Below, piece after piece: positions 785 through 64,000 of a stretch of DNA of 64,000 nucleotides (positions are counted from its first letter, which is position 1; the number at the start of each line of letters is the position of its first letter). The stretch is from the NCBI GenBank assembly GCA_030295235.1, contig AP026169.1:496001-560000 (forward strand), in the 5' to 3' direction. This stretch comes from Fistulifera solaris. Taxonomy: Eukaryota. A program made the position numbers and the translations under genes. The notes beneath the pieces were generated by a model that was given only the letters and a program-made list of their open reading frames with translations, did no database searches and was not told where the DNA came from.

Positions 785-1881
785 CTATCTGTATAGTTCA
801 TTCCATGTTCTCAGCTCACTAGAAACGCCTTCACTTCCGGCATGTGTTCGTTGCGTGCGAAGTCGCTCTTGCTCATATGCCGCATCGTCCGTCGGCAGCT
901 CTCGCCGACAATAGGGACATGTATTGTGGGATTTGAGCCACACTAACGCACAAGACTCGTGAAAGATATGCCCGCATTCGGGAAGGCGTAAAATCGTCTG
1001 CGACAACTGAAAATCATCCGTACAAATGACACACTCCTTGGCCTGTTTCTGAATTTTGAACTGACAGAGTAGGGTGCCGAAGGCTGACTGCACGCGTCTA
1101 GAAGCGCACGTGCATCCGCCTGCTTGATCATGACAACCGGAATCGTCAAATTTTCTCGTTCCGCCTCTTTCGTTGAATCTCGCATCACGTACGGCCACGG
1201 TTCCGCGAGATGGTTGCCGATAATGACAGCTTGAGCGCCAGCCTCCTGGGCGACAAGTGCTTTTCTGGCGAAATTTACGCCATCTCCTCGTTCCATGTAC
1301 AGAACGGAACGCTGTTGTCGAAGAGCTTGCTGTGTATTGGCAGATAACTTGTTGCCTTTTGCTGTTTTCGGTTCGGCTATTATAATTGCAGCATCTTCGA
1401 TACAACACGGCTGAGCTGATCCAAATTCACCAGGAATAGCTTCGCATCGAAACACAACACGCTCCGAGTTTCGCAATTCAATCGTCGACGGATGCAAGAA
1501 AAGCGTATTTTCCAACACGATTCGCGGTAATTGTTCCAAAGCTCTTCCCGCTGTGGCTCGCTGATTGGATGCAGGAGTCTGTTGAATGATTTCGCCCCTT
1601 AAAATTTCCAAGGATTCCATCAACTCTTGCTGAGCTTGTTGTGTGTCGACTACACTTTGTTGCACATGTCGCAGCAAATGAGACAAATGTCGTGCATTTT
1701 GACGAACATCTTCGACGAGGTCTTCCGGTACGAGTGAATATGGACTGCGTTGTTGTTGTTGCTGAGTTGCTTGTGCTGGAGGACTCGTGAGAGTCGTGCC
1801 ACAAATCGTGCATATGGAAGGATGATCGTGGCAGACTTCTTGACAAGAGGGACAGTAAATGTTGCCCGCAGGAATCGTCAT
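785..1881 (-). CDS. RING-H2 E3 ubiquitin ligase with N-terminal zinc ribbon and internal PA domain
   Basis: N-terminal YCPSC..CTICG; PA-domain signature 'MERGDGVNFARKALVAQEAGAQAVIIGN..LTIPVVMI'; RING 'CVICTDDF..LPECGHIFHESC..WLKSHNTCPYCRRELPTDD'. Two ORFs are joined by a frameshift near 1050. Confidence 0.85.
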
Positions 1882-2415: not shown

Positions 2416-4365
2416 TTAAAGCTTCTTTCCTTTGCTTCCTTTGCCACTTTTCTTTCCTTTGCTAGAGGTCTCCTCTTCATCGTCATGCCCGTGATCGTCA
2501 TGGTCGCCATGGCCAGCACCTAACTCACGCTTTCCCTTTCCACTCTCGCTTCCTTTGCTTCCCTTTCCTTTGCTAGAGACCTCTTCTACTTCCTCTTCAT
2601 CATGGTGTCCATGGTCGCGATCGTGTCCGTGGCCAAGTCCGAGCTCGCGCTCTCCCTTTCCGCCCTTTCCAGACTTCTTGCCTCCCTTGCCCTTGCTGGA
2701 AGCCTCTTCCTCGTCGTCATGTCCGTGGTCGCCATGTCCGACACCGAGTTCGCGCTTGCCCTTTCCAGACTTCTTGCCGCCCTTGCCCTTGCTGGAAGCC
2801 TCTTCCTCGTCGTCATGTCCGTGGTCGCCATGTCCGACACCGAGTTCGCGCTTGCCCTTTCCAGACTTCTTGCCACCCTTGCCCTTGCTGGAAGCCTCTT
2901 CCTCGTCGTCATGTCCGTGGTCGCCATGTCCGACACCGAGTTCGCGCTTGCCCTTTCCGGACTTCTTGCCACTCTTGCCCTTGCTGGAAGCCTCTTCCTC
3001 GTCGTCGTGTCCGTGGTCGCCATGTCCGACACCGAGTTCGCGCTTGCCCTTTCCGGACTTCTTGCCGCCCTTGCCCTTGCTGGAAGCCTCTTCCTCGTCG
3101 TCATGTCCGTGGTCGCCATGTCCGACACCGAGTTCGCGCTTGCCCTTTCCGGACTTCTTGCCACCCTTGCCCTTGCTGGAAGCCTCTTCCTCGTCGTCAT
3201 GGCCGTGGTCGCCATGTCCGACACCGAGCTCGCGCTTGCCCTTTCCGGACTTCTTGCCACCCTTGCCCTTGCTGGAAGCCTCTTCCTCGTCGTCGTGTCC
3301 GTGGTCGCCATGTCCGACACCGAGTTCGCGCTTGCCCTTTCCGGACTTCTTGCCGCCCTTGCCCTTGCTGGAAGCCTCTTCCTCGTCGTCATGTCCGTGG
3401 TCGCCATGTCCGACACCGAGTTCTCGCTTGCCCTTTCCAGACTTCTTGCCACCCTTGCCCTTGCTGGAAGCCTCTTCCTCGTCGTCATGTCCGTGGTCGC
3501 CATGTCCGACACCGAGTTCGCGCTTGCCCTTTCCGGACTTCTTGCCACTCTTGCCCTTGCTGGAAGCCTCTTCCTCGTCGTCATGGCAGTGGTCGCCATG
3601 TCCGACACCGAGTTCTCGCTTGCCCTTTCCGGACTTCTTGCCACCCTTGCCCTTGCTGGAAGCCTCTTCCTCGTCGTCATGTCCGTGGTCGCCATGTCCG
3701 ACACCGAGTTCGCGCTTGCCCTTTCCGGACTTCTTGCCACCCTTGCCCTTGCTGGAAGCCTCTTCCTCGTCGTCATGTCCGTGGTCGCCATGTCCGACAC
3801 CGAGTTCGCGCTTGCCCTTTCCGGACTTCTTGCCGCCCTTGCCCTTGCTGGAAGCCTCTTCCTCGTCGTCATGTCCGTGGTCGCCATGTCCGACACCGAG
3901 TTCGCGCTTGCCCTTTCCAGACTTCTTGCCGCCCTTGCCCTTGCTGGAAGCCTCTTCCTCGTCGTCGTGTCCGTGGTCGCCATGTCCGACACCGAGTTCG
4001 CGCTTGCCCTTTCCAGACTTCTTGCCGCCCTTGCCCTTGCTGGAAGCCTCTTCCTCGTCGTCATGTCGGTGGTCGCCATGTCCGACACCGAGTTCGCGCT
4101 TGCCCTTTCCACTCTTGGCTCCCTTTCCTCCCTTTCCTTTGCTGGAGGCAACTTCTTCATCATCCTCATGATGTCCATGATCACGATCATGTCCGTGACC
4201 TAGACCCAACCGTCTGAGACCGCCAGCGTTGATAAGGATGTTTGCGTCAGCCGACTCGACTTGAGAAGCGGACAACTCGGACTTTCCAATTGCACGGATA
4301 GATCCACCAACAATCGCGCACATGACAAGAGCAGCGGATGCGGTTTTAGCGGCAGTGTACTTCAT
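2416..4365 (-). CDS. Secreted His/Asp/Glu- and Lys/Gly-rich repeat polyprotein with RxL sites (silaffin/silacidin-like candidate)
   Basis: Signal-like start MKYTAAKTASAALVMCAIVGG, then 18 units each opened by RRL/REL; core unit RELGVGHGDHGHDDEEEASSKGKGGKKSGKGK. Uninterrupted ORF. Confidence 0.8.
   Translation of the reverse strand: MKYTAAKTASAALVMCAIVGGSIRAIGKSELSASQVESADANILINAGGLRRLGLGHGHDRDHGHHEDDEEVASSKGKGGKGAKSGKGKRELGVGHGDHRHDDEEEASSKGKGGKKSGKGKRELGVGHGDHGHDDEEEASSKGKGGKKSGKGKRELGVGHGDHGHDDEEEASSKGKGGKKSGKGKRELGVGHGDHGHDDEEEASSKGKGGKKSGKGKRELGVGHGDHGHDDEEEASSKGKGGKKSGKGKRELGVGHGDHCHDDEEEASSKGKSGKKSGKGKRELGVGHGDHGHDDEEEASSKGKGGKKSGKGKRELGVGHGDHGHDDEEEASSKGKGGKKSGKGKRELGVGHGDHGHDDEEEASSKGKGGKKSGKGKRELGVGHGDHGHDDEEEASSKGKGGKKSGKGKRELGVGHGDHGHDDEEEASSKGKGGKKSGKGKRELGVGHGDHGHDDEEEASSKGKSGKKSGKGKRELGVGHGDHGHDDEEEASSKGKGGKKSGKGKRELGVGHGDHGHDDEEEASSKGKGGKKSGKGKRELGVGHGDHGHDDEEEASSKGKGGKKSGKGGKGERELGLGHGHDRDHGHHDEEEVEEVSSKGKGSKGSESGKGKRELGAGHGDHDDHGHDDEEETSSKGKKSGKGSKGKKL
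2660..4110. repeat. 96-bp coding tandem repeat, 15 near-identical copies plus 3 diverged flanking units
   Basis: The same text recurs at 2701, 3181 and 3661 (480 bp = 5 x 96). The GACACCGAG core recurs every 96 bp from about 2740 to about 4084. Confidence 0.95.
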
Positions 4366-4454
4366 CTTAGCACACAAGGGAAATTATGTTAGTTACTGAC
4401 GAACAACATTGAACAAAAGCCAACCCCTTAAAGGATCTTAGGTCGAATGCGTAC
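4366..4454 (-). other. Probable 5'-UTR intron ending immediately before the ATG of the repeat protein
   Basis: Minus strand reads AAG|GTACGC...ACTAAC (branch-like)...CTAAG|ATGAAG; 89 nt. Confidence 0.6.
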
Positions 4455-4995
4455 CTTGTTGTTGTTATGAAAGATTTCGTTCAGAGTGTTGAGTGAAAGA
4501 TTTTATGATAGTTGTTGTCAAAGTTCCAAAGATGATTCTACAGAACGAATCGTTCAAGCATTGAGCTAAGAAATTTTTGAATGCACTAAAATTTGTTCGT
4601 ACCTAGCGTTGGATCCCAATTTTTATTGTCGTCTGTCGTGTTTTCACTAGTGTTCTCATTTGTAGTACTTTTGGCCAGAATGTCCAGTACCGGTTCGTCC
4701 ACCCCGCACAAGAAATTATGAACCACTCCAGTTCACAAATTTTATCGGTTGACTGAGTGGCTCTACGACACGCGTAGAAAACGTACCAGAGCAAAATTGT
4801 GTTAACAAGATCTGGAATTTAGAAGCTGGGACTATGGCCAGAATCAAACGCATTTTTCATGCCACGTTAGAAGTTGTCCATCCAAGGGACAATAACTTAC
4901 TTCAGCTATGTACTCAAATGAAACCCTAGATGGTCTTGACTTAGCAATGCAGGCAACGAAACATCGTATATCGCATAAAGAAATACAGGGTATTA

Positions 4996-6471
4996 TTAAA
5001 AGTCACCAATGATAGCTGCTTTCTGCTCTGCTGCATCCCGCTGCTTCCGGCGAATCTCTTTCATCAATGGATTCAAAAAAGTATTTTCAAAGCCCTCAAA
5101 ATAGTCCTTTAGGCTTGTCTGCTTCCAATCCGCGGATGCGTCAAGCTTGATTAGCTCTTGTTCTAATTTAGGTAACGTTGGCACGGTAAATGGATTGAAC
5201 GAGTCCACATTTACTATGGGGACACAAACGCGCCCCGTCTTTGGGTGTACGCAGAATGGCGATTTCAGCAAGTGGTTACGAGCTTTGGATACATTGACAT
5301 CCAGACGAGGATAGCCATGACGAAAGACCATTTCCACGGGCCAGTTCTCAAGTCGGTTTCGCTCTTTGGTTGACATATTCTTGGCGGCTTTGGCTACTCC
5401 TTTCTTGGCAGACAAGAAGGCTGACAAGTGCTCTTTGATTGACTCCCACTTTTCCGCGGGGGTGGTGTTATTGAATTTAGCTGGGGTTGTCCAGTGAGGG
5501 AGAAGTTTCTCGCGAACAGGTGCCGCGGCTTCGGGCAATTCATCTAAAAAGGCTTGACAGTTTTCCGGTGTAGCCAAAAGACCGTGCCCGCTTGCCGGTA
5601 GAACTTGATCAATAAACATGGGTTCCAAAAGTTCATAGGCCCGAGCTAACATGGGATGGAGTGGATGGGCAAGTTGAACTTCCTTGTTATTCTCCGAGCC
5701 CAGGTTCACCTTTTAAAAAGACGATCACCAAGGTATCAAGTTTAAGATTAGCAACAATGTTAGCAGCTTCCTGTATATTACAACACGACTCACCTCAAAA
5801 TACCCCGCAATGGCATGTCGCGCTTCGTCCGTCAGAGATTTCGCCACTTCATCGCAAACCCACGCGTGCACACCACGTCGTCCGGAGTAGAACCAAGCAA
5901 TGTGCTCAAAGCCAAAATCTTCGCGCAATGCCTGATCCATTACCTTCACCGCCATGGGCATGAAACCCCAGCAAACGCGACAGATTTGAGCTCCCGTGCA
6001 GCCGCACTTGCGTACGCCGTCGTAATCGGTCAAATCGACATCAAAGACGAGCTCACGCAGTTCCGGTTTCAGTTGCCCCGCTTGGAGAGTATCTTTTTCT
6101 TTCGGTGAATGCGAGAAAACGGCGCCGATGTCGATCTTTTGGGGCAGCGCTTGACAATCGCTTGCGCCAACTCTTCTTGTGTTGTGAAACTTTGGTAACG
6201 AATGTAGATTTCTTCGTCGGGAACGGGTTCAATCGTGAAAGAAAACTCTCGCTTTGAAAAGACAGAAGTGTTACTTCCGTAGCTGAGCCAGTCGTACAAC
6301 AAGGAAAAGGGAAATAGTCGAGAGTAGTACATTTTCAAGAGTTCCGGGGTGCAAGTCACCGCTTTCGAGGCGGGGGGCCGGAGATACGACAGCCGCCTCG
6401 ACCGAAGCCGTATTTGGAACGTCCTCACTTTCATCCTCGGCAAAAGATGTTTCTAATTCCATTTCGGTCAT
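4996..6471 (-). CDS. PRIM1: DNA primase small (catalytic) subunit
   Basis: 'YYSRLFPF..KREFSFT..YIRYQSF', 'ELVFDVDLTDYD', 'FYSGRRGVHAWVCD', 'YPRLDVNVSK..NHLLKSPFCVHPKTGRVCVP'. Intron 5710-5793 (GTGAGT..AG). About 3 frameshifts (near 6375, 6140, 6075). Confidence 0.95.
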
Positions 6472-43293: not shown

Positions 43294-46200
43294 ATGCAAG
43301 GTGATCGATACCCTGCAACACCCATGGCTTTGAAGCCACCGCACTCTCCCGTGAGCGTCGACTCGAGAGCTTCGGGGCCCACCGCTGGCTTTCATACGGC
43401 AAAACCTCGCTCGGCAAACCGTTTCAAGCTACCACCGGGGCGAGGTGTGCCCACTACGATAACGAGTCGAAATACACCCTCTCCGTTGCCGGTTTTGCAC
43501 GCTCCCAGTTCAATGAAACCACGATTTGCGACCCCTCAAACCTCGCACGTGATTTCGCGCAGCAGGAGCAATTCCGTTACCAGCACTTCTTCTTCGATAG
43601 GTGGGGGCTGGTCGAAGCAAATTGATTCAGCTTCCGGCAAAGTCTATTATTTTCATGCCGAAAAAGGCATTACTCAATGGGACGCACCGGCCGAAGTTTC
43701 TGAGCCGTTGCCAGCTGTCGTTGCCGTCGAGGCGTATTCTCTACGGGAATCACACGGAACGCTCGTAGTAGGACGAAAGGAACCCGAAACGAGTTCGAAC
43801 ACTGTAGATGAGATGCAAGGATGGCAACAGCTCACGGATCTAGCTTCCGGAAAGCCTTACTATTACAATGCCGCAACAGGCGAATCGAGATGGGAGAGGC
43901 CTGAACAACTCAACACCTTTGAGAGTGACAGGCAACAAGTGGGTGAGCAAACATGTGTTACCATCGATCAGCCTACCACTGCTGTAGAAGTTAGTGGACG
44001 ACGCGACATTGCTGAGTATCAAGATGATTTTGGAGTTCCTTCAGGAGAGATGCTGCCAACTGCCACGGAAGCAGAAAGCTCGCCGCAAATCGCCGTTTCT
44101 AAAGCGTCACATGGAATAGTCGTAGAGCAAAGTGAATTTTTGTTACAACCTACTTCGGGTAGCGTTGATGAGATGCAAGGGTGGCAAGAGCGCACGGATG
44201 AAGCTTCTGGGATGCCTTACTATTACAATGCCGCGACAGGCGAATCGCAATGGGAGAAGCCTTTGCAACTTGACACACCCGACAACGATATACTATACAC
44301 CAATGAGCCCATTTCTAATATTTTGGATCAGCATGCAAATGCTGTAGAAGTCATTGAGCGAAGCGACGCTGCTGAGCTTTTGTCAACTGTCATGGAAGTA
44401 GAAAGCTCGCCGCAAATGATTGGTTTCGAGGAGTCACAGGTAACGAGTGTCGAAAAAAATGATTTTTTGCCACAAAAAAAAGTTGGACAGTGTCGATGAG
44501 ATACAAGGATGGCAACAGCTTATGGATGAAGCCTCTGGTAAGCTCTATTATTACAATGCCGCGACAGGCGAGTCGCAATGGGAGAAGCCTTTGCAACTAG
44601 ATAATCCGGAGAGTGAACAGCAACACGCCAATGAACCAACTTCTGATGTCTTGGACCAGCCTCAAACTGCTGTAGAATTTAATGAACGAAGCCAAACCCC
44701 CGAGAATCAATATGACGTTTCGAAGGATCTGAATAATAGTCCAGAGGACGCGCATCCAAAGGCAATGCCCTTGACTATGACTCTGGATAATGAAGAATTG
44801 ATCGCTAGTGACACAAACGAGTGTACCGATGATCTTCCCAAAGGATGGCGCACTGTCACAGATCCTTCCGCGGGGACTTATTTTCTCAATGAAATGACTG
44901 GAGAGACCAGCTGGGAATTTCCAAGCGCCATGGAAAGTTCACGAACCGAAAAAGTTACCGACGCACCGACGGATCTGATTCTACCTGAGAGTTGGACACA
45001 AATTGTGGATCCTGTTTCCGGTAGTTGCTATTTTTACAACGAAGAGACGGGTGAAACTTCATGGGATTTTCCAGTGCCAGGGATCAGTACTTTATCAGAG
45101 AAAGAGTCATTACATGTAGAAAACGATGCTGTGGATTCTGTGCTTCCTCGCAGTCAAAAGCCCCATACGCAAGACGACGCTGGATTAGTTAAAGAACAGA
45201 AAGATGAGACAGACGGAGTTTTTCCCGCTGGTTGGGGTAAGGTAGAGGACGAGGCGACTTTGGAAACCTATTTTTACAACGAAATAACCGGCGAGACCGC
45301 GTGGACGCTACCTTCTGAGATAGTGCCTGTCGACGACGAACTTCAGGCTGCTGTAGAAACGAATACAAACGAGACTTTAGATGGAGCTAGCGAACCGTTA
45401 CCTGATGGTTGGAGTAGAAAGATTGACCAATCGTCTGGCCAGGTCTACTTTTTCAATGAAGGTGCTTGCGAAAGTTCTTGGAATATGCCTACTGTAGCTG
45501 CGATGACGCTGGAAGGCGAAACCTGCGCCATTTATAATGACGAAGCCGGGCCTTCTACAGACGGCCTAATGGACACTATTCCACAAGACGTCAACACTTC
45601 CTCTGAGCATCAGAATATACAGGAAACCTCGGATACTAAAAATAACCAGTCTTTTTCCACAAAAAGGAGGTATCGGTTAACGCTAGTTCCTTCATTGAAG
45701 ATCACGCAGCCGTCAATGCGGTTCTGGCGACCGACCGCGAAACCCAAGATTCTCATGATCCATCATCTGATATTGATTGCTGGGAAAAGTTAAGGGATGA
45801 GTCGACAGGTACCTTTTATTATTTAAACACAAGTACAGGGGAAGCAACTTGGGTTTCTCCTGAGAAGATGAGCAAGATCATGAGCGAAAGTGAAAGCGGT
45901 GGTGACTCTGAAAAAGTCGAAAATGAACCGTCCACACGAAACCCAGGAATAGACAATAACCCCTCTCCATTTGAAGCACCCCTCACACTTCCATCTTCCG
46001 AAGTAACGACAGGCGCTCATCCTCTACCAGCTGGCTGGGAGATGTTGATTGATCCGGGGTCTGGAGACGCCTATTACTATAATGAGGAACGAGGAGAAAC
46101 ATCATGGGAACTACCAACGGCTACGCGGGAAGAAGTTGATCTTCCTACACAAGAGCCTACGTTGGTTTCGGGTGACTCTATCGAACCAGATTCAACCGAG

Positions 46201-49200
46201 CCTGAAAAAAGCACGTTGCTTGCTGCAGGCTACTGGGTATCAGTAGAGGATCCTTCATCGGGTGAAGTTTACTTCTACAACAAGCAAACTGGAGAGACCT
46301 CTTGGGAACTACCAAGCGGCCCAGTTTTTGATTCGGCTGGAGAGTTGTCCGTAACTACAGCGACCGGCGATGAAACTTTTCAAACCTCGCATGATATAAA
46401 GGAGACATCTCATTTTCATGTTTCATCCAGAAAGTTGTGTTTTAATCATGAAACGGAAGAGATCTTAGACAGTCGTCTCGTCTCTCAACAGAGTGATGAC
46501 AAAAAGCCCAACGAGCCTGAAATCGGTAATGACATTCATGATGATGATGATGGTGCTGCAGGTTATTCCAAATTTTCGGCCTCGTTGACGAAGAAGAAAG
46601 AAAACGTCTACATCGCACTACAAAGATTTAAGACAAAAAAGCTCGATCTCAAGTGACGAGCAGAAAGATAAAGGTATAAGCAACGTGAAAAAAGGATTAT
46701 ATGAGGAAGGACCCACGAAGAACGAGAATGGCGAAGTGCTTTTAACCCGGAACGCAACTAATGAGGAAAGCGTTGTGAACAAGAGGAATCTAGCTTTCGT
46801 TTCTGAGACGGTCACTTCCTCTGAGTTAGAGGAATCGAACGAAATCAGCCAGTCACAAGTCATTTCGCGTTCATTACATAGTTGGGAACAAGTTGTAGAT
46901 GAGTCTTCTGGTGATGTTTATTATTTAAACAAACTTACGGGCGAAACGTCGTGGGATCCTCCTGTTTTAGTGACTTCAACAAACGGTTCTGTACATCAGA
47001 ACGTTGATCCTCGAAATGTATCTATGAGTGGCGATATTCTACCTCCAGGATGGGAGAAGCTTTTCGATACGACGTCGGGAAAATTTTATTACTTCAATAG
47101 CGTGCAGAATACAACGTCCTGGGATCCTCCTTCCGACCCAAATGATGATTGGATAGAGGTTGCTCACCCTGCACTGTCCGAACCATCAGCTGGATTGTTG
47201 AAAACACCCAAAGAGAGTCATTCAGTGGGAAGATGCGGACCATTCGCTAGCTTTGGATTTGGTGGTCGTGTGTGCGTCTCGAATGGTCCACCAGGCACGA
47301 TTGCGGTTCATCGCGTGTCCTCGTTAAATGCATCGGACGTTGTTGTTGTGACTGAACGTACTAAACGAGGATTTGGCTTCTCCGGTCCCTTGATTTCGGC
47401 AGAGAATCAAAGCGTTCTGGCTTACCTCGAAAGAAAAGCCCAAAAACAGTCTGACTTGATATGGAACCTTTGTCTAATTGCCTCGCATTCTAGGGGTTGC
47501 CTCCGTAGCGACGACAGAGTAAATGAATTGAACCGACCGGAGCCTTCCATAATCGATCTTCTTCTGACTAATACGAACGAGAACGAAACTTCGGAAGCTG
47601 AAATACTTGAGGAAAAACAAATGTCCGCAAATCATAGTGGTTTGAGTGAAATTCAATTTCTTCTTTTGCAAGGGAAAAGAGAGGAAGCAGTTGAATGCGC
47701 TTTGTTGAAGGGACAATTTGCGCTTGCTTTTCTCGTTGCCAGCATGTGCAGTAGAGAGACATATTTTAAGGCTGCTAAAAGTTATACAGAGAGTGTTTTT
47801 TGCAAAGGCTCCCCCTTACATACTGCAGCTGAGCTATTCTGTTCAGAGCTCCAGACCCCCGAAATGAGGATCGGAGTAAATCCGACGATATGGAGTGATA
47901 ACAATATCGACTTGAAACATACATGGAAGAAACATCTCGCAGCAATCATCAGCAATCGAACTGCTGGTTGGGATGATTTAGCAATTGCTCTCGGTGACCG
48001 TCTCAAAGAACTCGGTGAAGTCGTACCTGCCCATGTCTGTTACATGGTGTGTGGCTGTTCTCTTTCATCCCCTGTCCGCAAGAATGCAAAACTAAGTCTA
48101 TTGGGGTGCGAAGTCGGTTTCGCTGAGTTGCTTCTCCTGACGAATGACTCTGTGGAGTCATTTTGCCGAGCCGAAGCCTACGAGTGGGCGAAAAGACGTG
48201 GGAATAAAGATGCAGCTATTCAATGCATTCAAGGGTTCAAACTTCAATACGCACTCCTTTTAGGTGACTTAGGACTTGTGGAAGAAGCCAAGATGTACAT
48301 CGCGAGCATCAAGGAATGTCTTGATTTCAACGAAAATATGGACTTGGCACAAGAATGTTTGCACCCATTAGTAGTTTCGATTCTAACAGCCGACCGCCCG
48401 GGAATTTTGCATCAAGTTCTTGAACTTGAATCTCGATATGCTGGAACATCTGTGCGCAATCTGAAAATCAGAGAGGGTCCTTGCGGAGACAGCTTACCCG
48501 TCACGCACGACGGAATCTCCGAATCGGCAACTAGAGATCTAATAGTTCATACAAGTGACAAAGATTTACATGGTGAAACGAAAAAGCGTTTGTCGTCGTC
48601 GGCTATCCTTCGGAACAATCTACACGAGGAAGAGACTGATGGAAGTCCCGATAAGATGTCAATAAGGAAGGAAACTTTATCCAAGGTGCAACCTCCTTTA
48701 GCATCTATCAGCAGCACTACAACAAAGAAGGCGACAGACAAGTCGGCTACTGTCACCAGGAACGAAAAGCGTATTCATGGTATACCTGCTACGCTCGCTA
48801 CCCCTGAACGAACAACTAGTGATGATAAGCCACATCCGTCAGATCACGCGGAGACGAACAAACGAAAGAATTTTAAGCCAGAACAGGCACCTCGATCAGC
48901 GCCACCCAACTTGCAGTCACCTAGTTTTGGTAAGCAGCTGGCCGTTTTATTATTCGCCCAACACTGGGTTTGAAGAGATCGCGACTAACTATTCGTTCTC
49001 ACTAAGGTTTTATGAACAAATTAAAGGATCGCATTATAAAGTGGCAAAATCCCGACGCGCATATTGCTAATCCAGGAGAAGAAATGCAAGCTTATTATGA
49101 CAAAGAAAGAAAAGTGTGGGTCTTCCCGGGCGAAGACCCTGACGAAGTGGCGAAGCCTTTGGGCCCACCACCTTCAATGTCCACGCCGTCAGCAACTCAA

Positions 49201-51567: not shown

Positions 51568-52779
51568 GGCCTGGTCAGTCCTCGTTGGTGTTGTTAGATT
51601 GTTGTGACTTCGTGGACATCAAGTGTAATTGCTATCGCATACCTGCTTAACTTTTTTATAGAAAAGAATATAACTTTATCTGTTCTAAAAACAAAGATGC
51701 AGGCGGTTATTTTTGGGTTTCGTATTGGTCCAAGTCCCATCGCTTCATTCATTTGTCATTAGCGTTAAGGTATATGTATTGTAATTACTACGAGTATTTC
51801 ATTCGAAACCCGAAATAATATGAAACCCGAATGCATAGAAACACTTGAAGGCAGGTCTAATCCGGCATTTTGCAACAAAACGAGAGGAGTGCAATTACAT
51901 CCAAAAGCCGATATTGGTCTAGAGTCTAAACTGGTTGACCAAGTATAATCAAACCTTCACAACTTTATTGGTATAGCAGTATGGCAGTAAGGTCAGCTCA
52001 CTTTCCAGCACAACCTTGATTAGGAGCGCAAAGCATGCCTTTTGTCGTAGTGCTTCATAGTATGGCAACATTTTAATCTTCGTTTCGTGAGAACAGTCTT
52101 CCTTTCTTCTCTCTTTCTGACATCTAAGACGACAGAGGGAAGAATAGTTCTTTATAACAGGCAACAGCTCCTTGTTTGGTTTTAAACTTCTTACTAGAAG
52201 GCCTAATGCTTGCCTCTTAGTAAACGCTCACTCGCGACGACTCGCGACTCGCGATTGATGTTTGTGTGGAAGGAAAATTAAATTGTACGGAGTACTAACT
52301 TTTCGGCGACTACACTACAAGATTTGAAAGGGGCGATCTGCGTTCAAAACCGTATCTTGTATATCATGTTTGACTAGTATCCTACTAGTTAATTTTAGTC
52401 CTTGATTTCTTCCAGCACACTCTAGTTTTGATTCTATTAGAAGGATCCAATCCCATGCTGAAGTTTGTCGAGTATCTCTAAGATTGTACGTTTCTGAGTT
52501 TGTATTTTCATTTAAGTGAAAGTAGTGATACTTAGGCTATGAAATTGCTCTTACGAGTAATTTACCGTTAAGAGAACCGTTCGCTCAGACAGTTTATTCT
52601 CTAAAAATCTGAGCTCAAACTTTTAGCGGTTTTTCATCGGTTCGAGATAACCGTCACAATTTCTCTTGAACATGAAAAAAGGTTAAAAGCCGTTTCGCTA
52701 AAAAAGAACAGGAAGTTAACAACCGTTGCGTTCGAATTGAAAGTGGCATTCCACCTTACCGCCGAACCTACCTGCTATC

Positions 52780-54282
52780 ATGTCAGCAACTCCAGATTCT
52801 CTACAAGTCAAGCCGACGAAGTTTGATGAAGGCAGCACTTCTCCCTCGTCAGGCAATACTACTGACGAAGAAACACCCGAGCAGCGAGGTTCCGATGGCA
52901 AGAGCCCTTCACAAGGCAACTTGAAAGATGGACATCACAACTTTGCCCCGCTCTTCAAGTACTCATATTCGCTGGTGCTATTGCTTTTTTCGATCGTCGT
53001 CGTTACCGCCACCATCTTCACAGATCAGACGAAAATGGCAGCAGACGTCAACGCAGCCGTTGCTTTCATTCTTCTTTGGGTTCTTACGCTTTGGCTGGCC
53101 GTCATGGAAGGAGGACAAGGTTGTCTCGTGGGGTTGCAGCCAGTCGACAAAACGCTGTTCGCAAAGTCGCACCCAAAGGCGTTGAAGGTTACGAAATTGG
53201 CTCACGAAGGAAACAACTTGGAACGTTTTATTGTCGGTAGGCAGTTCCTTGTCGTACTTGTTATCTTTGTCATCAACATGTGTGGATCGGCATTAAAAGG
53301 CGCCAGCGTTCTCAACTTGCCCGACTTTATGGTGGAGATTTTCATTAACTCTGGCGTCGCTTTGATTTTGATGACAACCATTCTTGGACAGTTGACCGCG
53401 CAAGTGAACGCCGCCGACTGCATGCTCGACTTCATCAACAACTATGTTATGTTGATCACAACGCATGTTTCCCTTTTCATCGAAATGTCAGGGTTGCTCC
53501 ATTCCGTCTACCTGGTTCAGTTTATTTTTGCCAAGATCACCGGCAAAGCCTCGGATTCCCAACCGGAACGCACTATCCCGCAAGCTATCTTCTTCTGGCT
53601 CCGAATTGTTTTCTCGGTGGCTGTCTTGTCTTTTTCCTTGGTGGTCACCTTGGTTGCGCTCTTCGACGGCAAGACTACAATGTATAGTGGTGTCCCAGAG
53701 CCTGTGTCAGTAACCCTTCTATTTGCTTTGATGGCGTTCGTTGGAATGATGGAAGGTATGCAAATTGCTCTCTTCGCCGTCATCAACTTGCCCAAGGACG
53801 AGCTACAGAAACATCCTCAAGCAGCCAAGGTATGCGAAATGGTCTTTTCTAGGTCACATTTACAAGCTTTTCTTGATCGGACGCCAGATCTGCGTCACGT
53901 GTTGCATGTTCATCGTCGCTCGCGTCACCACCTGCAGCGTCGATGAGGGCGAGTCGACAATTTTCGGTGTCAGTGCGGGTGTCCAAAATTTCTTCAATAC
54001 AGGTCTACTGGGTGCTGTGATCACAACGATCATCGGATCATTAGCCTGGCGCATCATTGCCTCGGCTTTCCCGGTGGCCTTTTGTCCAACCCGCTCAACT
54101 ATTTGACCATTCGTCTGTGCTTGTTTCTCGAGGCATCTGGTGTTTGCTCGGCGGCATGGGTCGTCGCACGGGTGCACCGAAAGGTGGCTCGATTTGAACC
54201 GGATGTCGAGTATCTTGGTACTCCGGAATCGAGAGAATCGCGCAAGCAAATCGCCGACGATCTCGAGTTGCAGGAAAATTAG
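52780..54282 (+). CDS. SIT: Silicon transporter (SIT family)
   Basis: Multi-TM protein with EGGQ, GRQ, CMLD, EGMQ and a second GRQ motif. Frameshifts near 53870 and 54082. Confidence 0.95.
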
Positions 54283-55342
54283 ATGCTATGACCAGCACGA
54301 ACGAAACATTTGTAACGTTGATTAAAAAAGGCACTATAAATCAAAGAAATCATAGAATATTAAAAATTTTCGTTGCTTCGTTTTTATTTTGTAACGGTAC
54401 TTTGATTGACGCGTGTTTGGGTGATGGGCATTCAAATTATCCAGCGTCCAGCCTTGGATCGATGATGCGATCGATCCATGTAGTCTAAACTTTCATCCTT
54501 TGAAAAACATTTCCTTAATAAAGGGCTCGCGCATGCATTTTAGCAGAAACTGAAGTGCGATTATGCGAAAGGACATAGTACTTGTTATCAAATTCAAGAG
54601 GCACTGAACCTAGTCGAGTACCGGTGCGCATGACCAAAAATGCGCACGTAACCGAATAACCTACGTCACTCAAAGGCTTACTTCAACCCACTACATTAAG
54701 ATGATAATGTCACTCCATCTGGTACTGGACGTCTATCTGAATTACCACTGTAAATTTTTCTTCCCACTTCGATCCCCAGACTGGCTTTATTTGCGACAGT
54801 CATTGGACACGAAGATCATCGATACAGTAGAGTACAAAAACTTTTATAGAGTACTGTCAAATGGAATTTGGCTACTCGTATTCTTTGGATTTTGGTGGCC
54901 GGCTCGCTCCATCTTCCGATGCATTGGTTCAGCCATCGAGCGCGTGTCCAGCCACCTCCTCTATCAAATCCTCCGACATTGGTGGGAGATTCTTTTTCCA
55001 GGGTCCACTCCGATGAATTCATCACACATGACGGGAAATAGTGGTGGAGTGGTGGAGAACCAAAAAAGCGAAAGGTCTGCAATAGAGAGCATTACAATAA
55101 GTTATTTGGTTTTTGATCTATTTTTTTTTAACAAACGTTAGTCTTTACACATTACTTCGCTCAAGTTCTGCTCATTATTACTCATTACAGTAATAAAGAA
55201 GAGCACATCCGACTTTCAATTCAAGCTAAAGCATCTTAACAGAACACTCACCAATCCATACGGCATTGGCACCTCCAAACGCTTTCGATACAGAAAGAAA
55301 ACACCCACATCCTCGAAACTTACCCGCGCCGCATATCGTAGT

Positions 55343-57016: not shown

Positions 57017-59832
57017 ATGAATAAAAATTACTTTTTCGACGAGCTGTCGTCGACAGGATCGGCAGATCCTCCTTTGCCACTCGAATCGCCTACAAACACA
57101 GCCGTCACGAATGAGGTAGAATCGGCGCCATCGTTCTATCAACAAATGCAAAATGAAATACAGCATCTGCGCAACAAAGTTGACAAACAATTGTCGGATA
57201 TGGTACTTTCTAGTACGCTTGAACTAAAAACGCTGACGGATCAAATGAAGATAATGAAGGAAATGGATTCAAGTACTCCAACCCGACAATCTTCGCCTTT
57301 GCGTCAAACGGTGCACCCGAACTCGCCAGGATCTTTACGAGATCTTGCGAGTCCGAGAAATCGGTGTCCACAATCAGGGGGCCGTAAATCTCACTCCAAT
57401 GCGCTATCAGTCACATCGTCTGCGTCATCTCGTCTACGAGAAGATTATTCTCGTGATATTACTGAGCCAACCACGAATTTATCTCGTCATGCCTCTCGAC
57501 AACAACGTCGCCGTGCTCAGTTTGAATCTCGTTCTACATCTTCGTCGACATCATCGCGCCTGAACGAAGTAGTTTCTCATGATATCACTGAGCCAGCGGC
57601 GAATTTGACCCGCTATGCCAACCGTCGACATCGTCAAACAGAAACGTTACACGTACAAACGAGCGAGCCAAGGACAGCAGTATCTTCTATGTCAGGTTCA
57701 GAATCTTCTCCCATTTTTAAAGAAATAGTGATTTCCTCGCGGAACAGGCCAGCTTTGCAGAGTCTTGCCAGTTCTCCAACTGAAAAGGGTGTCGCCCTCG
57801 CAAACGACCGTTTGGGACAGATTAATGAAGAGGAAAATGAAGATGAGAGTCTTGTTGAGCAGAGCGATCCAATTGAGTATCAAGAGATTCATGAAGTAAC
57901 GCGAAAACAGCACAAAGTACCCAAAAGGAAAAATAAAGACCTACTTGCCCATCCACCTAATGAAACATATCCACCTACGAGACGAGGGGCGGCTTATGAT
58001 AAATATCGGACTCTTAACAAGGAGACTCTTCTCCGTCCTTGGAGACAGAAAAGAATGACAAACGCGGCAACACAAATGATGGAGAAGGCGATGATAATGA
58101 ACCGATGTCTTACACTCATAATGATCAGCAGCAGAATACCAATTACGGACTACCCTTGGTTCAAATGGTGTCATCTGATGAAGTATCCAATCCGCTTCCA
58201 GAGGAAACCAATGATCCGGCTCGAGCTCTGTCTCCAATTTATGACAAAACGCGAATTTCAGAGCAGTATATAGTTCCGCCCGACAGTTCTAAAGTGCTCA
58301 ACCAAAACGCACACCTCGAAAGTGGTCCGCTGTCTCCTAGTGAAAAGGTATATCGACAACACGAAAACGCGAAGGAGAGCGGATTGGGGGCGCATTGGAG
58401 TTTATTTAGCATGGGAATACGAAAAACAGATCCTTCTTTAGTGAATCATGATGAAGAAGTGGACCATTCCGAGGATGAGAGTCCGAGCGAACCAAAGGAT
58501 CAACCCCTGACTCCTCCCACATCACATGCAACAGCAGAGTCCTCATCACCGTCCATCATCGAGAGGAACTCGCCAGAGCCGACCATGATGGATGAGACTA
58601 CTCCACGACGCAGCCTTGCTCCAAGCCAAAGTCCTGTAAGAAACGATGCATCACCGTGGCAATCCGCTTTGCAAGAGAGGGTATCAGTACCAATGCAAAA
58701 TCTATTATGTGGAACAGGTTCACCCACATTTACCTCCAATCAACTAGTAGTTTCGCCCCGACAAACAATAACATACCAGCTGCCGAGACAAACTGCCACA
58801 AGCATCAACTATACCGAACCAGGGAGACAACTTGACGATCCACCCGATGCAACGGTTTATGACCCCGTGCTGCCTTCGCGGCAGGATGACCCATCACCCA
58901 CTTCCATCGAACGAAGAAACCAATCGCTGCCGAACGCCAAGCTGCTGCGCGCTGCCATGGCAACGTCCGAACAATGTGCTATAACCATTTATCCTTCTAT
59001 TGGTACATATCATGACGCCATTGTCTTGAAAACCTACAATGAAGAGAAGAAAGAAGAGGAATCGGCTGTTGCGGTTCGGTCCAAGGGTGAAAGGAGGGTT
59101 CGATTGGAGCAAGTTGAAACCAAAACAGTGCAAGATCCATACGGTGACTATGGTGTGTACACGGGGCTACTTCTAAAAGGTCTGCCGTATGGACAAGGTA
59201 CGATGGCGTACGCCGATGGACGTACCTATGTAGGTGAATGGAAGAGTGGTCGCTGGCACGGCCACGGGAAAACCACATTTAGTAACGGCGACGTGTATAT
59301 TGGTCAATATTATATGGACAAACGACACGGTTTTGGTCGTTATGAGTGGATCGACGGTCGCATTTATGACGGTGAGTTTAAGAATGATCAAAGAGAAGGA
59401 AAAGGAACGTATAGTTTTCCAGATTCATCAGTGTATTCGGGCGACTTCCACAAGGGGTTGCGACATGGACAAGGATGTTACAAATTTGCGGACTCGTCAG
59501 TGTACAACGGAGGCTTCAAGAACGGCAAATATGACGGAGTTGGGGAATGTATATGGGCCGATGGGCGATGCTATCGTGGGGAATGGAAAGATGGTTGGGC
59601 TCACGGGTACGGCGTGGAAATGCGAGCCGATGGGACGATTCGTCATGACGGTGAATGGAAGCGTGATAAACCCGTCAGGAGGAACAAGGATGATGCAAGA
59701 CGGAGCACCAGCAGAGGCCGAGAACACGGTAATAGGCTTCAAAAGATCAACTCGGAAGTCGACCGGTATACCGTTGTTTATGTCAAGGAACAAGAGTCGC
59801 TTCAGAGTAGTTCGACAGATAGTGAGCTTTAA
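57017..59832 (+). CDS. MORN-repeat protein 2 (disordered N-terminus, ~7 C-terminal MORN repeats)
   Basis: Repeated YxGxWxxGxxHGxG at about 59130-59670; frameshift near 58030. Confidence 0.85.
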
Positions 59833-60548
59833 GCGTCCATTCTGAAGGAGCTGCCGAGATATTTTGTAATATTGTTCATCAACCATTACCGTTTTTCACA
59901 TAGACTCTTAGGAGTGACTCTGTGCTACTGATTGCATAGCTTTGTTCTCTTTAGGTTGGCTGGATTTGCCATGTCGAAGACTCGAAATGTCAGCGGCTTT
60001 TAGCAATGCTCGTGTATCCACAATATAATCTTCGGAGTAAGAAATACTGAGTAGAATTTACGAGTTCAGTTCTGAAGAACAATGCCCAGGAGTGAAACTT
60101 CTACATGGCGACTGTTCGTTTTCTGCGTTTCTTAAAGTAACCAGTTAGGATTATCTTGATTTGGTTGGAAAAGTCTTCATCAGCATTAGGAATGTGTGTA
60201 TCCTTTCCTTTCATTGACCATCCTGTCTCCCCAATTTACTCTAAAATTAATGTGTAGGCGACCTTTTACCGCGACTGCGCTGCAATTCAGTCGAGCGTCA
60301 GGCGTCATCACCTACAGAACGCCGCGCACCCCAATACTCCTTTGGCGCACCTACCAATCAAGAGAAACGACGGCAACAGTTTATGCATCCTATCCTATCG
60401 ACAAAATTACTTTATAAAGAGGATTTCTTGCTTGTTTCGGCAAAATTTACCATCTTCGTTTCGTTAAAGAAGCAACAAGAAAGGTAGCGCTCGCATCTTC
60501 CTCGTTGTAAAAAAGAATGCCCAGAGAGCATTCGAGGGAATCATCATC

Positions 60549-62814
60549 ATGTCGATCGAAAAGGATGACACCGTTCAAACGCGACACGTCGATGGCGAAA
60601 CAATATCCGATGCGAGTGGAAGAATGGGAGTGTATACCGGAGAAATTCTGATTTGCGAAAACGGGAAAGAACTTCCCCACGGTGTCGGTGGGTTCATGTT
60701 GTATCATGCTCCGCCGCCGTCTTTGCCTCCGCCTCCTCCTCCGGGGACCGCGTCAACAACGCCTGTCACGAAGCCAAGCACTCCACCATTGAATGCCATC
60801 ACAGTTCTCAAGTACGAAGGAGAATGGTGGCAAGGTCACTGGCATGGCAAGGGAAAGTACAGCTTATCGAGCGGCGACGAATACGAGGGTGCCGTTTGTT
60901 TTTCCAAAAATCACGGCAGAGGAGCCTTGCAATACGCTGATGGACGTCACTATAAAGGTCAGTGGAACAACAATCTACGAGAAGGGAAAGGAACATTCAC
61001 ATGGCCGGGAGGGTCGTATTATGAAGGAGAGTTTGTGCAAAATCTTCGACACGGACAAGGACATTTCGTCGATCCGAAACGAGCGGTCGAGTATACCGGA
61101 AGGTGGGAACGTGGGGTGTATCAAGGCGAAGGAGTCTATCAATGGACGGATGTCAAAGGACAAGTTCATTGCTATACGGGAACATTCATGCAAGGGAAAC
61201 CCCACGGTAATGGTAAAGAAGTGAATCAAACCACGGGGGATACGCGTCACGATGGATTATGGCGGAATGGAGAACCGGTCATCGAATTGAGTGATCTCGT
61301 TTCTTCTGAAACTTTACTCTCTTCGCGTGTCGCGGCTTCCGCTAAAACGGTATCGCGCAAAGAAAAAAGTCATACGACTGTCGTTCAGGATCATATCTAT
61401 TTTGATAACGAAGGCAGACAAATTTTGTATCGGGGCTTGTGGAACTCGGAGAAAGAGATTCCGGACGGAAATGGGACAGCCGAATGCCTCAAAGGGTCTG
61501 ACAAGGGTAGCACCGAAGAATGGAAATCGTACGAGGGTTGCTTTATCGACGGAATGTTTCATGGTCACGGAAGGCTTCATTTGGCATCGGGGGATATGTA
61601 CGAAGGGGATTTTGACAAAGGGCTCCGACATGGGAAAGGCTTGTATAAATGGAAGGATGGTAGGCAATATACCGGTCAATTTGTGAAGGGTTCTCGGCAC
61701 GGTATAGGGTGTATGGCTTATCCGGATGGTAGTTTGTACGAAGGATCATTCGAAAATGGACAGCGTCACGGTTATGGCAAGTTCATGTTTGGTGCAGGTG
61801 GCGCCATGTACGAGGGTGAATGGAAAGATGGCAATTATAATGGGACTGGAGTGCTGGTACACCAGGATGGGTCCACGTATTCTGGAGATTTCGTAGATGG
61901 CCAGTCTCATGGTCTGGGCAAAGAAGTCAGTTCTGCAGGTGTCGTCACTTACGAAGGTACATGGGTTCACGGAAAGCCTGAAAACTCCACTGTTTCGGAT
62001 TTTTCAGACCAAGAACTAGAACAAGAGGCGACGATGAGAGCAGTGAATAGTGACTCTGATACCGCTGAACTCGAAGCACGTACAGAATCTGAAGCGGAAA
62101 ATGCCGCTGAGTCGCCTTTGCCAAAAAAATGAAGACAACGACGATCATGAAGCTGTTGTAGACGAACCAATCCTTGATGCTCAGGGAAATCCGGGAAATT
62201 ACACCGGTCTTGTATCAAAACGCACGCGTCGCCCCAACGGTGTTGGTAGACTTGTGTATGGAGATGGCAAACGGATCCATGAGGGCTTTTGGAAGGACGG
62301 ACGCAAGGAAGGTCACGGAAGATGCCTATTCTTTCCACATCGTGATTTTCATGAAGGGGATTATCACGATAATCTTCGTAGCGGCAAAGGCATATATAAA
62401 TGGAGCGACGGTAGGTGCTTTGAGGGTAATTATGTGAAAGACTTGAGAGACGGCTACGGTGTCTTCACTTACCCCAGCGGGGAAAAATATGAAGGAAATT
62501 TCTGCGAAGGCCGTCGATCTGGCTACGGTCGGTTTACGTTTGACAAGGGTAGGAGTGTATACGAAGGTGAATGGAGTGATGGAAAGTATCATGGTTATGG
62601 GTCTTTGCGCTGGGGACAAGGCTTTCATTACGAAGGTGAATTCGTCGACGGAAGATTTCACGGACATGGTAAGAAGTTGGACCCCCAAGGCCACGTGATT
62701 CTCGAGGGCGAGTGGGTTGCTGGCAAATACCTCGATTTCGAAAACAAGGAAGACGATAAGTCATCGGAGCACTTTGATACAATAGTTGTCACTGAAGGCG
62801 AAGAGGCTTACTAA
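60549..62814 (+). CDS. MORN-repeat protein 3 (three MORN blocks)
   Basis: About 20 MORN repeats in three blocks; frameshift at A7 run 62123-62129. Confidence 0.85.
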
Positions 62815-63185: not shown

Positions 63186-64000
63186 CTACTCAACGAGGTG
63201 CCCGTTCTCCCACACACCGTGTTTTTTCTTGCCATCAGCGGTAACTTCCATTCCAAGCCCATGTGCCACAGAATTTTTGAATTCACCCGTATACTTTGAT
63301 CCAGAAGCAGAGACGAGTTCACCATTGCCATCATACCGCCCTTCCTTCCATTCGCCTTCATAGTAACCTCCATCAAACTTGTAACGACCAAAACCTTCAA
63401 ACATGCCATCACAGAACTCTCCTTCATATACGTTGCCGTTGTGAAAGGCAAATTTTCCCTGGCCGTGACGCTTGTCCTCGCGAAACATTCCGGTGTATAC
63501 GTCCCCATTGTCCCATTTATAAACTCCTTTACCATGTCTAGCGTCAAATACAAACTCTCCTTCATAAGTGTCTCCATTGGGATTTAATAGCTTTCCCTTG
63601 CCATTCCATTGCCCATTAATCCAATCACCCGAGTAAAGTCGGCCACTATCATAGCTCATTTTACCAGTACCGTGCGGAAGCCCTTCTGACACGAGGAAAG
63701 TTCCAGTGTAACGCCCCGAATCACCGTATTTATCTCTTGATTGTACATTCGACACTGAGAAAAGAAACTTTTCGGTTGGCAATCCAGCTTCTTCGGCGGC
63801 TTTCTTCGCTGCAAGGGCGTCCGCCATCACACCATCATCAAAGAAGCAGTTGTACAGGAGTGGTTCCGCAGAGTCATCATCACTCGGCGCTGTCCCTGCC
63901 GGGCTGGGCAGATCCAACAAATTCGGCGGAGCAATGGATGCGATTCGAGCTAGAGGTTTAGGCTCTTGCGATGAAGCTGAGTCCAATCCCATGGGAGGAG
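63186..64000 (-). CDS. MORN-repeat protein 4, probably 5'-partial
   Basis: About 7 MORN repeats at the C-terminus; the frame is open to the window edge. Confidence 0.85.
   Translation of the reverse strand, partial: PPMGLDSASSQEPKPLARIASIAPPNLLDLPSPAGTAPSDDDSAEPLLYNCFFDDGVMADALAAKKAAEEAGLPTEKFLFSVSNVQSRDKYGDSGRYTGTFLVSEGLPHGTGKMSYDSGRLYSGDWINGQWNGKGKLLNPNGDTYEGEFVFDARHGKGVYKWDNGDVYTGMFREDKRHGQGKFAFHNGNVYEGEFCDGMFEGFGRYKFDGGYYEGEWKEGRYDGNGELVSASGSKYTGEFKNSVAHGLGMEVTADGKKKHGVWENGHLVE

Follow-up and report, generated by a model that had tools for sequence, protein, structure and literature searches.

A 64,000-nucleotide window of the Fistulifera solaris genome (contig AP026169.1, positions 496,001 to 560,000) contains, at 2416..4365 on the minus strand, a gene for a 649-residue repeat protein in which a leader is followed by 18 tandem units, each joining a His-rich and acidic block to a Lys-rich block. 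The gene is transcribed, spliced, and under purifying selection. We read it as a candidate silaffin-like, biosilica-associated precursor that would carry a new His/acidic module in a raphid pennate diatom, and we consider the chances of this reading to be about even. All coordinates are those of the window.

The open reading frame (ORF) listing of the window gives an unbroken frame of 649 codons followed by a TAA stop (product P0001). Contigs from four public sequencing runs, X1–X4, were aligned to 4111–5000 and match 4111–4365 without mismatch. Two further runs, X5 and X6, have small shares (0.08 and 0.05) and lie outside the aligned set. One contig each in runs X2 and X4 joins 4365 directly to 4455, skipping 89 nucleotides (4366..4454) that begin and end CT..AC on the plus strand. 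The skipped segment is therefore a GT..AG intron on the minus strand, which identifies the transcribed strand, and its acceptor directly abuts the ATG at 4365. The X4 contig lies on 4455–4576 and sets the minimum extent of the first exon, which belongs to the 5′ untranslated region (4455..4576, minus strand); the X2 contig covers 30 nucleotides of it (4455–4484). The X1 contig keeps the intron and reaches the upstream DNA; those of X2–X4 cover the transcribed part only. The intron-less form, with its canonical ends, is best explained as spliced mRNA. Contig depths range from 18 to 218 and are unsuitable for ranking expression. A short upstream ORF of seven codons (ATG, six further codons, and TAG; 4538..4561, minus strand) was read from the sequence of the 5′ exon. 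It lies within the cover of the spliced X4 contig and might affect translation. Compared with the window, the intron-retaining X1 contig carries an additional C after 4423, which could be an allelic, homoeologous, or assembly difference.

Three frames are open across the array, encoding 649 and 534 residues on the minus strand and 533 on the plus strand. The two shorter ones (2586–4203) are open through periodicity alone and could be mis-called by gene finders; the codon-position pattern, together with the splice site, speaks against them as coding. Among the fourteen units of 32 residues, six of the eight variable nucleotide columns fall at codon position 3 of the 649-residue frame. Compared with their consensus, these units have 18 synonymous and five non-synonymous differences. 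The mean proportions of synonymous (pS) and non-synonymous (pN) differences are 0.086 and 0.011, giving a pN/pS of 0.125, a value behind which concerted evolution leaves few independent events. The low ratio indicates that the peptide sequence itself is kept, not merely a DNA repeat.

Units were defined by splitting the translation after each R[RE]L. This yields a 53-residue leader ending in RRL, followed by units of 39, 14 × 32, 35, 40, and 34 residues. There are 18 R.L motifs, one RRL and 17 REL. The fourteen 32-residue units (units 2–15, 2746..4089, minus strand) are highly uniform, with 11 of them identical (GVGHGDHGHDDEEEASSKGKGGKKSGKGKREL). Tandem Repeats Finder reports 15.1 copies of a 96-nucleotide period at 2662–4110, with 97% matches, no indels, and a score of 2723, and a degenerate DNA pattern spanning the junction of two units (SGKGKREL-GxGHG) matches 16 times in the window versus 0 in 100 shuffles. 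Each unit runs from G-x-G-H-G through a His cluster, an acidic run, SSKGK, and a Lys/Gly/Ser cluster to REL. Unit 1 (GLGHGHDRDHGHHEDDEEVASSKGKGGKGAKSGKGKREL, 39 residues; 4090..4206, minus strand) and units 16–18 (35, 40, and 34 residues; 2419..2745, minus strand) have diverged, with the order of the parts unchanged. REL is present in all three diverged units that have a boundary (1, 16, and 17), although unit 16, which ends GEREL, is without the preceding Lys. A dibasic pair stands directly before the last two residues at 17 of the 18 boundaries (RR once, KR 16 times), the remaining one being the ER of unit 16. The protein contains 36 K[SG][SG]K motifs and 34 Lys-started 12-residue windows with at least five Lys, and each unit has 5–7 Lys. 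His residues number 3–5 per unit, spaced H-G-D-H-G-H or H-G-H-x-x-x-H-G-H-H, and adjoin 5–6 acidic residues.

A sequence-only reading of the window had described a signal-like N-terminus and a short pro-region followed by 18 units, and translation of the ORF bears this out, with the minus strand newly added. The six Lys in 12 residues that it had pointed to are seen in the Lys block KGKGGKKSGKGK. RxL stands at the unit boundaries as it had described, with RRL after the leader and REL closing 17 units; the last unit ends in KKL and the stop codon. Expression, which it had set as a test, is attested by the intron-skipping contigs of X2 and X4.

The N-terminus (about residues 1–25, MKYTAAKTASAALVMCAIVGGSIRA; 4291..4365, minus strand) resembles a signal peptide in its Kyte-Doolittle hydropathy. 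Lys occupies positions 2 and 7, and these are followed by the hydrophobic core AALVMCAIVGG, with a 9-residue peak of 2.94, and the small-residue stretch SIRA. This is the sole hydrophobic 19-residue segment of the protein (1.67 versus at most 0.41 elsewhere). Such heuristic features fit a cleavable signal peptide for the endoplasmic reticulum (ER), which is what we predict. The pro-region that follows (about residues 26–53; 4207..4290, minus strand) has RRL at its end. Other destinations were considered and rejected. Diatom plastid signals have an aromatic residue at the signal cleavage site, and the protein has no Phe. ER retention relies on a pattern of the K/H-D-E-L type, which fits neither the terminal KKL nor the ...KREL that cleavage would leave. 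A glycosylphosphatidylinositol or membrane anchor is ruled out by the hydrophilic C-terminus.

The whole protein is 25.4% Gly, 17.1% Lys, 11.9% Glu, 10.0% Ser, 9.1% His, and 8.9% Asp, so that Asp and Glu together make up 20.8%. Pro, Phe, and Trp are absent, the single Tyr is residue 3, within the signal peptide, and there are two Cys; the 649 residues contain no N-glycosylation site. A unit balances six Lys and three His against seven Asp and Glu, and the isoelectric point (pI) is 7.4 for the protein and 7.03 for the unmodified 29-residue unit peptide. The computed net charge of this peptide is −0.8 at pH 8, 0.0 at pH 7, +2.6 at pH 5.5, and +3.7 at pH 5, a shift that is due mainly to the three His. 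In the region after the leader, positive and negative residues make up fractions of 0.215 (f+) and 0.221 (f−), and the fraction of charged residues is 0.44. The charges are strongly segregated, with a kappa of 0.41 versus 0.150 ± 0.017 in shuffled sequences (maximum 0.206, n = 200). The mature region is thus a net-neutral, blocky, strong polyampholyte that becomes cationic at pH 5. A single-sequence AlphaFold2 model of residues 1–156 has a mean predicted local distance difference test score (pLDDT) of 51.8 and no secondary structure in the units; this low-confidence model is compatible with intrinsic disorder.

Silaffin-like frustule proteins are a class set by sequence features, not by homology. 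Biochemically, silaffins are characterized by tight association with biosilica, from which NH4F/HF releases them, by in vitro precipitation of silica, and by methylated or polyamine-bearing Lys and phosphorylated Ser. As judged by heuristic hydropathy, the repeat protein has a signal peptide and no transmembrane segment. It has RRL at residues 51–53 and REL closing units 1–17. Tesson et al. state that RXL sites had come to light only in biosilica-associated proteins, in most of which the N-terminal site marks where the pro-peptide is removed, with the proviso that a role in processing "remains to be proven" (PMC5647440). In Sil1p, RXL follows the signal peptide and closes the repeat units (RRIL or RRNL); the precursors of frustulins, cingulins, and silacidins also hold RXL, and these sites are proposed to be cut by an endopeptidase (PMC4557024). 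Lys motifs provide a second line of comparison. The screen of Brembu et al. looked for a signal peptide with repeated KXXK (X = S/G), and the silica-targeting pentalysine cluster is defined as five Lys within 12–14 residues (PMC5501833). Both are found in the repeat protein, where a 12-residue stretch with six Lys occurs in nearly every unit, with the reservations that in each unit the paired KXXK motifs adjoin directly (KGGK-KSGK) where the definition places them 1–6 residues apart, and that the cluster includes one KK pair where the definition has non-consecutive Lys. Fattorini and Maier searched for proteins with a signal peptide, no transmembrane domain, and either a Lys-enriched region (LER) or a UM motif, and both of the candidates they studied, Tp12162 and Tp5357, were found in the frustule (PMC9650480).

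The features of neighboring classes are lacking. Silacidins are strongly acidic and have no basic clusters, whereas the unit here has a pI of 7.03 and six Lys against seven acidic residues. The Trp- or Tyr-rich domains that alternate with Lys-rich ones in cingulins do not occur in a protein with no Trp, no Phe, and one Tyr. Acidic Cys-rich (ACR) domains define frustulins, and only two Cys and no Pfam family were found. There is no counterpart, in the absence of Pro, of the Pro-rich character of Siliplant1 (about 20% Pro, with KKPXPXKPKP-type repeats). As judged from the motifs, all features other than the His cluster are among those linked with biosilica proteins in the diatom literature.

Silaffin-1A of Cylindrotheca fusiformis, encoded in Sil1p, offers a parallel in overall design, since it shares the signal peptide, the RXL after the leader, and tandem short units with a basic-RXL ending, which in Sil1p are released as peptides. 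The R5 unit of Sil1p starts with SSKK and ends ...GSKRRIL, and the corresponding block of the repeat protein starts with SSKGK and ends ...GKGKREL (PMC11818168). In the accepted mechanism, native silaffins self-assemble as zwitterions and then condense silicic acid (PMC4557024). The two differ in the source of the negative charge: the Sil1p units are purely basic and become zwitterionic through phosphorylation and polyamines, whereas the DDEEE and His block of the repeat protein is encoded in the backbone. They also differ in the number of units (18 versus 7 in Sil1p) and in the X of RXL, which is Glu in the repeat protein. No sequence homology between the repeat protein and Sil1p is detectable; silaffins of different species are themselves described as not mutually homologous (PMC4557024).

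Among other diatom proteins, the silacidin precursor of Thalassiosira pseudonana is likewise highly repetitive and yields Asp/Glu-rich peptides that assist silica formation (PMC4557024). Silacidins are strongly acidic phosphopeptides without Lys clusters, whereas the unit of the repeat protein is net neutral, with six Lys and three His. Cingulins and Lys-enriched proteins (Tp12162, Tp5357, CinW2, and CinY2) share with it a signal peptide, the lack of a transmembrane segment, K(S/G)nK motifs, and RXL, and the Lys-enriched region of Tp12162 has nearly the composition of the Lys block described here (PMC9650480). The Trp- or Tyr-rich domains of cingulins are absent from the repeat protein, and neither a His/acidic block nor an array of 18 near-identical units has been described for this group.

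The closest architecture lies outside the diatoms. Siliplant1 (Slp1) of sorghum silica cells is secreted and disordered, with an H,D-rich domain followed by a Lys-rich zwitterionic domain; a peptide from its repeat precipitates silica in vitro, and RXL stands at three of its seven repeat ends (bioRxiv 10.1101/518332). Slp1 differs in its 20% Pro, its pI of 9.28, the irregularity of its seven repeats, and a P,T,Y-rich domain as the third of its domains, whereas the repeat protein has no Pro, a pI of 7.4, and RXL at each boundary. Since one protein is from a plant and the other from a diatom, and they have no sequence similarity, the likeness would be convergent. In glassin, from a hexactinellid sponge, His and Asp together exceed 30%, and the domains made up of these two residues are the proposed driver of silicification; silicifying proteins are regarded as sharing a zwitterionic motif (PMC11733937). 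Lys clusters, units delimited by RXL, and a leader of the diatom type are all missing from glassin, which is likened here by description, not by sequence. A His-rich peptide from phage display bound silica most strongly and also precipitated it best; the C-terminal tail of CotB1, a zwitterionic sequence from the spore coat of Bacillus cereus, is essential for biosilicification and has nanomolar affinity for silica (PMC11818168). The CotB1 tail resembles the units as a short zwitterionic sequence with a cationic end, but it occurs once, on a folded bacterial protein, and does not come from a secreted precursor of repeats. In high-molecular-weight kininogen, domain 5, which is His/Gly/Lys-rich and disordered, binds Zn2+ and anionic surfaces such as those of glass and kaolin. 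Its composition is near that of the GxGHG...KGK parts, but it belongs to a protein of vertebrate plasma, has neither an acidic block nor RXL units, and shares no ancestry with the repeat protein.

Relatives were sought in several collections. The exact 649-residue protein has no match among 15 billion sequences, and a homology search among proteins of similar length, in which 8000 candidates were scored, returned none at E ≤ 1e-3. A HMMER scan of 1.84 billion representatives gave 13 matches at E ≤ 1e-3, of which one, P0002 (73 residues), is true; the other 12 are unrelated periodic proteins with at most 3.3% His and at most one K[SG][SG]K, and were rejected. When residues 1–125 were compared with shorter proteins, P0002 alone was found. 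No Pfam family matches, PDB sequences gave no match at E ≤ 1, and the best score in the ESM Atlas (0.76) was too low to be useful. In metagenome contigs, 264 stretches matched by pattern and tblastn confirmed none of them, in a search where low-complexity handling may hide relatives; the unit-junction pattern had no match in these contigs (16 in the window as control). P0002, from an NCBI source on a 47.7-kb contig, equals residues 1–73 at 71 of 73 positions, the two differences lying in HHDDEEE versus HHEDDEE, and ends inside unit 1. It is probably a gene model that was cut short at the array in an earlier assembly, or else the second subgenome copy of F. solaris, which we take to be allodiploid. 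The full repeat gene is visible only in the present assembly.

No paper in a full-text search contains the unit peptide strings, and we found no published description under His-rich diatom silica proteins or Fistulifera silaffins in a search whose scope excluded subscription literature, including Fistulifera frustule proteomics. The Fistulifera frustule proteome reportedly described by Nemoto in 2014 could in principle list the repeat protein. PMC4712521 cites that work and mentions a protein G7408.

If the repeat protein is a silaffin-like precursor, a mechanism can be proposed. We infer that it would enter the ER on its signal peptide and lose its pro-region by cleavage at RRL. An endoprotease directed to RXL (or to KR/RR) would then cut some or all of the 17 REL sites, releasing up to 18 peptides of about 29–40 residues each, possibly with modified residues. 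That most REL sites are cut to give separate peptides is a tentative proposal, to which we give somewhat less than even weight. Each peptide would be a zwitterion, with the His/acidic block (GHGDHGHDDEEE) followed by the silaffin-type block (SSKGKGGKKSGKGK). Near pH 7–8 it would be net neutral, and blocks of opposite charge could pair between molecules and drive self-assembly, the acidic block of the backbone standing in for the phosphate groups of native silaffins. The silica deposition vesicle is acidic. There, the three His per unit would be protonated and the assembly would become polycationic, bind polysilicic acid, and speed its condensation, in the vesicle or the growing frustule, and the Lys cluster may double as a silica-targeting signal. 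The strongest form of this proposal is that these would be the first diatom silica peptides that are zwitterionic by virtue of their backbone, independently of phosphorylation, with His acting as a pH switch (possibly also a Zn2+ switch): the peptides would be uncharged overall and associate with one another in the ER and Golgi, then turn polycationic and condense silica once in the acidic deposition vesicle. We consider this form possible but on the unlikely side. What sets the predicted architecture apart is the combination of silaffin logic with a backbone acidic block and a His block, which is unmatched in the diatom proteins that we found.

Several points weigh against a biosilica role. 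Because the 17 REL sites were copied by duplication, they cannot be counted as 17 separate observations; semi-independent support comes from the diverged units alone. In silacidin the motif is RRL. No known RXL with Glu as X came to light, and PMC4557024 quotes only RRIL and RRNL. As KR or RR pairs occur at 17 of 18 boundaries, RXL-specific processing is not required, and the two kinds of cleavage look alike in the sequence. The original silaffin-like screen of Scheffel, which sets minima of 18% Ser and 10% Lys per 100 residues (quoted in PMC3478156), separates the two residues: Lys reaches 12–20 per 100, but Ser at most 12, and this shortfall means that the repeat protein would escape the screen. 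The predictive value of the motifs was measured in a centric diatom, T. pseudonana, not in a raphid pennate. His-x-His with acidic runs would also fit a metal- or Ca-binding protein, and pennates secrete adhesive and mucilage proteins as well. Finally, no RNA run is on record as a holder of the sequence, and whether the runs are RNA or DNA is the guess of the tool. Set against these points, the proposal of a biosilica precursor in the sequence-only reading has gained a diatom host, transcription, purifying selection, and the frustule-protein features, and is qualified by the low Ser content and the KR/RR alternative. Its view that the architecture is new is upheld to the extent that neither a homologue nor a published description was found; it needs amending in that Siliplant1, with H,D-rich and Lys-rich domains and RXL repeats, is a precedent outside diatoms. 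The lack of a match to a characterized family, which it had also raised, agrees with the Pfam result and with P0002 as the only true HMMER match.

The protein might instead be a secreted or lumenal high-capacity buffer of metals or other cations (Zn2+, Ni2+, Cu2+, or Ca2+) with no role in silica formation. HxxHxH and DDEEE would chelate, and the Lys blocks would neutralize charge or tether the protein to anionic polysaccharide. The 3–5 His of each unit, beside 5–6 acidic residues, and the overall content of His and of Asp and Glu are what such a buffer would need, and the sarcoplasmic reticulum has His-rich, acidic-repeat Ca-binding proteins that the repeat protein recalls. This explanation leaves unaccounted for several motifs tied to biosilica proteins, namely RXL behind the signal peptide, RXL at the unit ends, and the silaffin-type clusters of K[SG][SG]K, and no metal-binding family was matched in Pfam. 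Metal binding and a silica role can also coexist. We judge a buffer without a silica role to be unlikely.

A further alternative, which we rate as similarly unlikely, is that the precursor stays uncleaved as an extracellular-matrix polyampholyte of roughly 60 kDa. It would serve as a surface coat or as raphe adhesive or mucilage, with no silica role, and would self-coacervate and adhere to anionic polysaccharides or substrata. Its blocky charge (kappa 0.41, charged fraction 0.44), disorder, signal-peptide-like N-terminus, and raphid pennate host are all in keeping with such a role, and KG-repeat proteins occur among candidate surface proteins of Amphora; yet the one that was tested, the KG-rich AC3362, was shown to be a cell-wall protein associated with biosilica instead of an adhesive (PMC4220933). 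Moreover, the repeat protein lacks Tyr, Pro, Thr, and Cys-rich or recognized adhesion domains, and REL is strictly kept at the boundaries, those of diverged units included, which points to processing.

The dibasic pairs raise the question of a kexin-type precursor of many small bioactive peptides, whether histatin-like antimicrobial, metal-dependent, or signaling, in which cleavage after KR or RR would be followed by trimming of the ends, as happens in the multi-peptide precursors of fungi and insects. Comparable precursors are those of alpha-factor in yeast and of apidaecin. Many identical copies under purifying selection are typical of the type, and a dibasic pair is present at 17 of 18 boundaries. 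Unit 16, however, dropped the dibasic pair (ER-EL) yet kept REL. A net-neutral peptide with a six-residue acidic run is also unlike typical cationic antimicrobial peptides, and literature searches found no such peptide system in diatoms. We therefore think a precursor of this kind improbable. A non-functional origin, as a minisatellite open by chance in several frames or as an assembly artifact, could draw on the three open frames and on the absence of the exact protein from 15 billion sequences, but it is very improbable given an intron acceptor directly before the ATG of the 649-residue frame (GT..AG on the minus strand), the bias of six of eight variable columns to codon position 3 with the low pN/pS, the independent 73-residue entry, and contigs from four runs that agree with 4111–4365 throughout.

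The host was identified through a silicon transporter in the same window. An ORF at 52780–53946 matches PF03842 (E = 1.8e-116), and its best named match is F. solaris FisN_8Hh248, at 93% identity, followed by F. solaris paralogues at 86% and 75%. This match places the host among the silicifying raphid pennate diatoms, as F. solaris itself or a near relation. F. solaris is described in the literature as transformable. The transporter copy in the window is not identical to deposited F. solaris proteins, and its gene (52741–54300, plus strand) is interrupted after 53946 by one or more introns or frame changes. A functional tie between the transporter and the repeat gene was considered and dropped; the two lie 48 kb apart, a distance that offers no support.

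The remainder of the window is gene-dense. It holds genes for a PA-domain protein, the DNA primase small subunit, an Obg GTPase, an AAA ATPase, a GT90 glycosyltransferase, and a DEAD helicase, together with a WW-rich Sec16-like gene and MORN-repeat genes. None of the other ORFs of at least 120 residues in the window contains a K[SG][SG]K motif or has a comparable composition. The downstream neighbor on the same strand (943–1881, minus strand) combines a zinc-ribbon-like N-terminus rich in Cys (CPSCQEVC...CTICG) with a PA domain (E = 5e-10), and may encode a PA-domain ubiquitin ligase or a sorting receptor of the secretory pathway. At 43294–48973 (plus strand), ORFs with WW domains (3, 5, and 1 matched stretches) are followed by a Sec16 Sec23-binding domain; this run is probably a single large Sec16-like gene of ER exit sites with an unusual WW-repeat N-terminal part. 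Two adjoining ORFs at 58105–62132 (plus strand) have five and seven matched MORN repeats, and on the opposite strand the window closes with a Gly/acidic-rich ORF that is similar in composition (63186–63992, minus strand).

Homology cannot reveal silaffin-type proteins, which differ from species to species, and any new architecture therefore informs the rules that lead from sequence to silica. The only database trace of the present gene is a 73-residue stump, which suggests that tandem-repeat biomineralization genes are probably under-counted in older diatom annotations. The array offers 18 copies of one 29–32-residue peptide with its own anion, cation, and titratable switch. As these are united in one peptide, a synthetic version can test the zwitterion and pH-switch model without exotic modifications and, if active, would provide a ready-made tag for silica immobilization. 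If the pH-switch form of the proposal is correct, a design of His/acidic and Lys blocks in RXL repeats would have arisen independently in diatoms, in grasses (Siliplant1), and in part in glass sponges (glassin), which would point to a general sequence grammar for the biological formation of silica. A role in silica formation would also mean that silicification in diatoms, grasses, and sponges shares a design.

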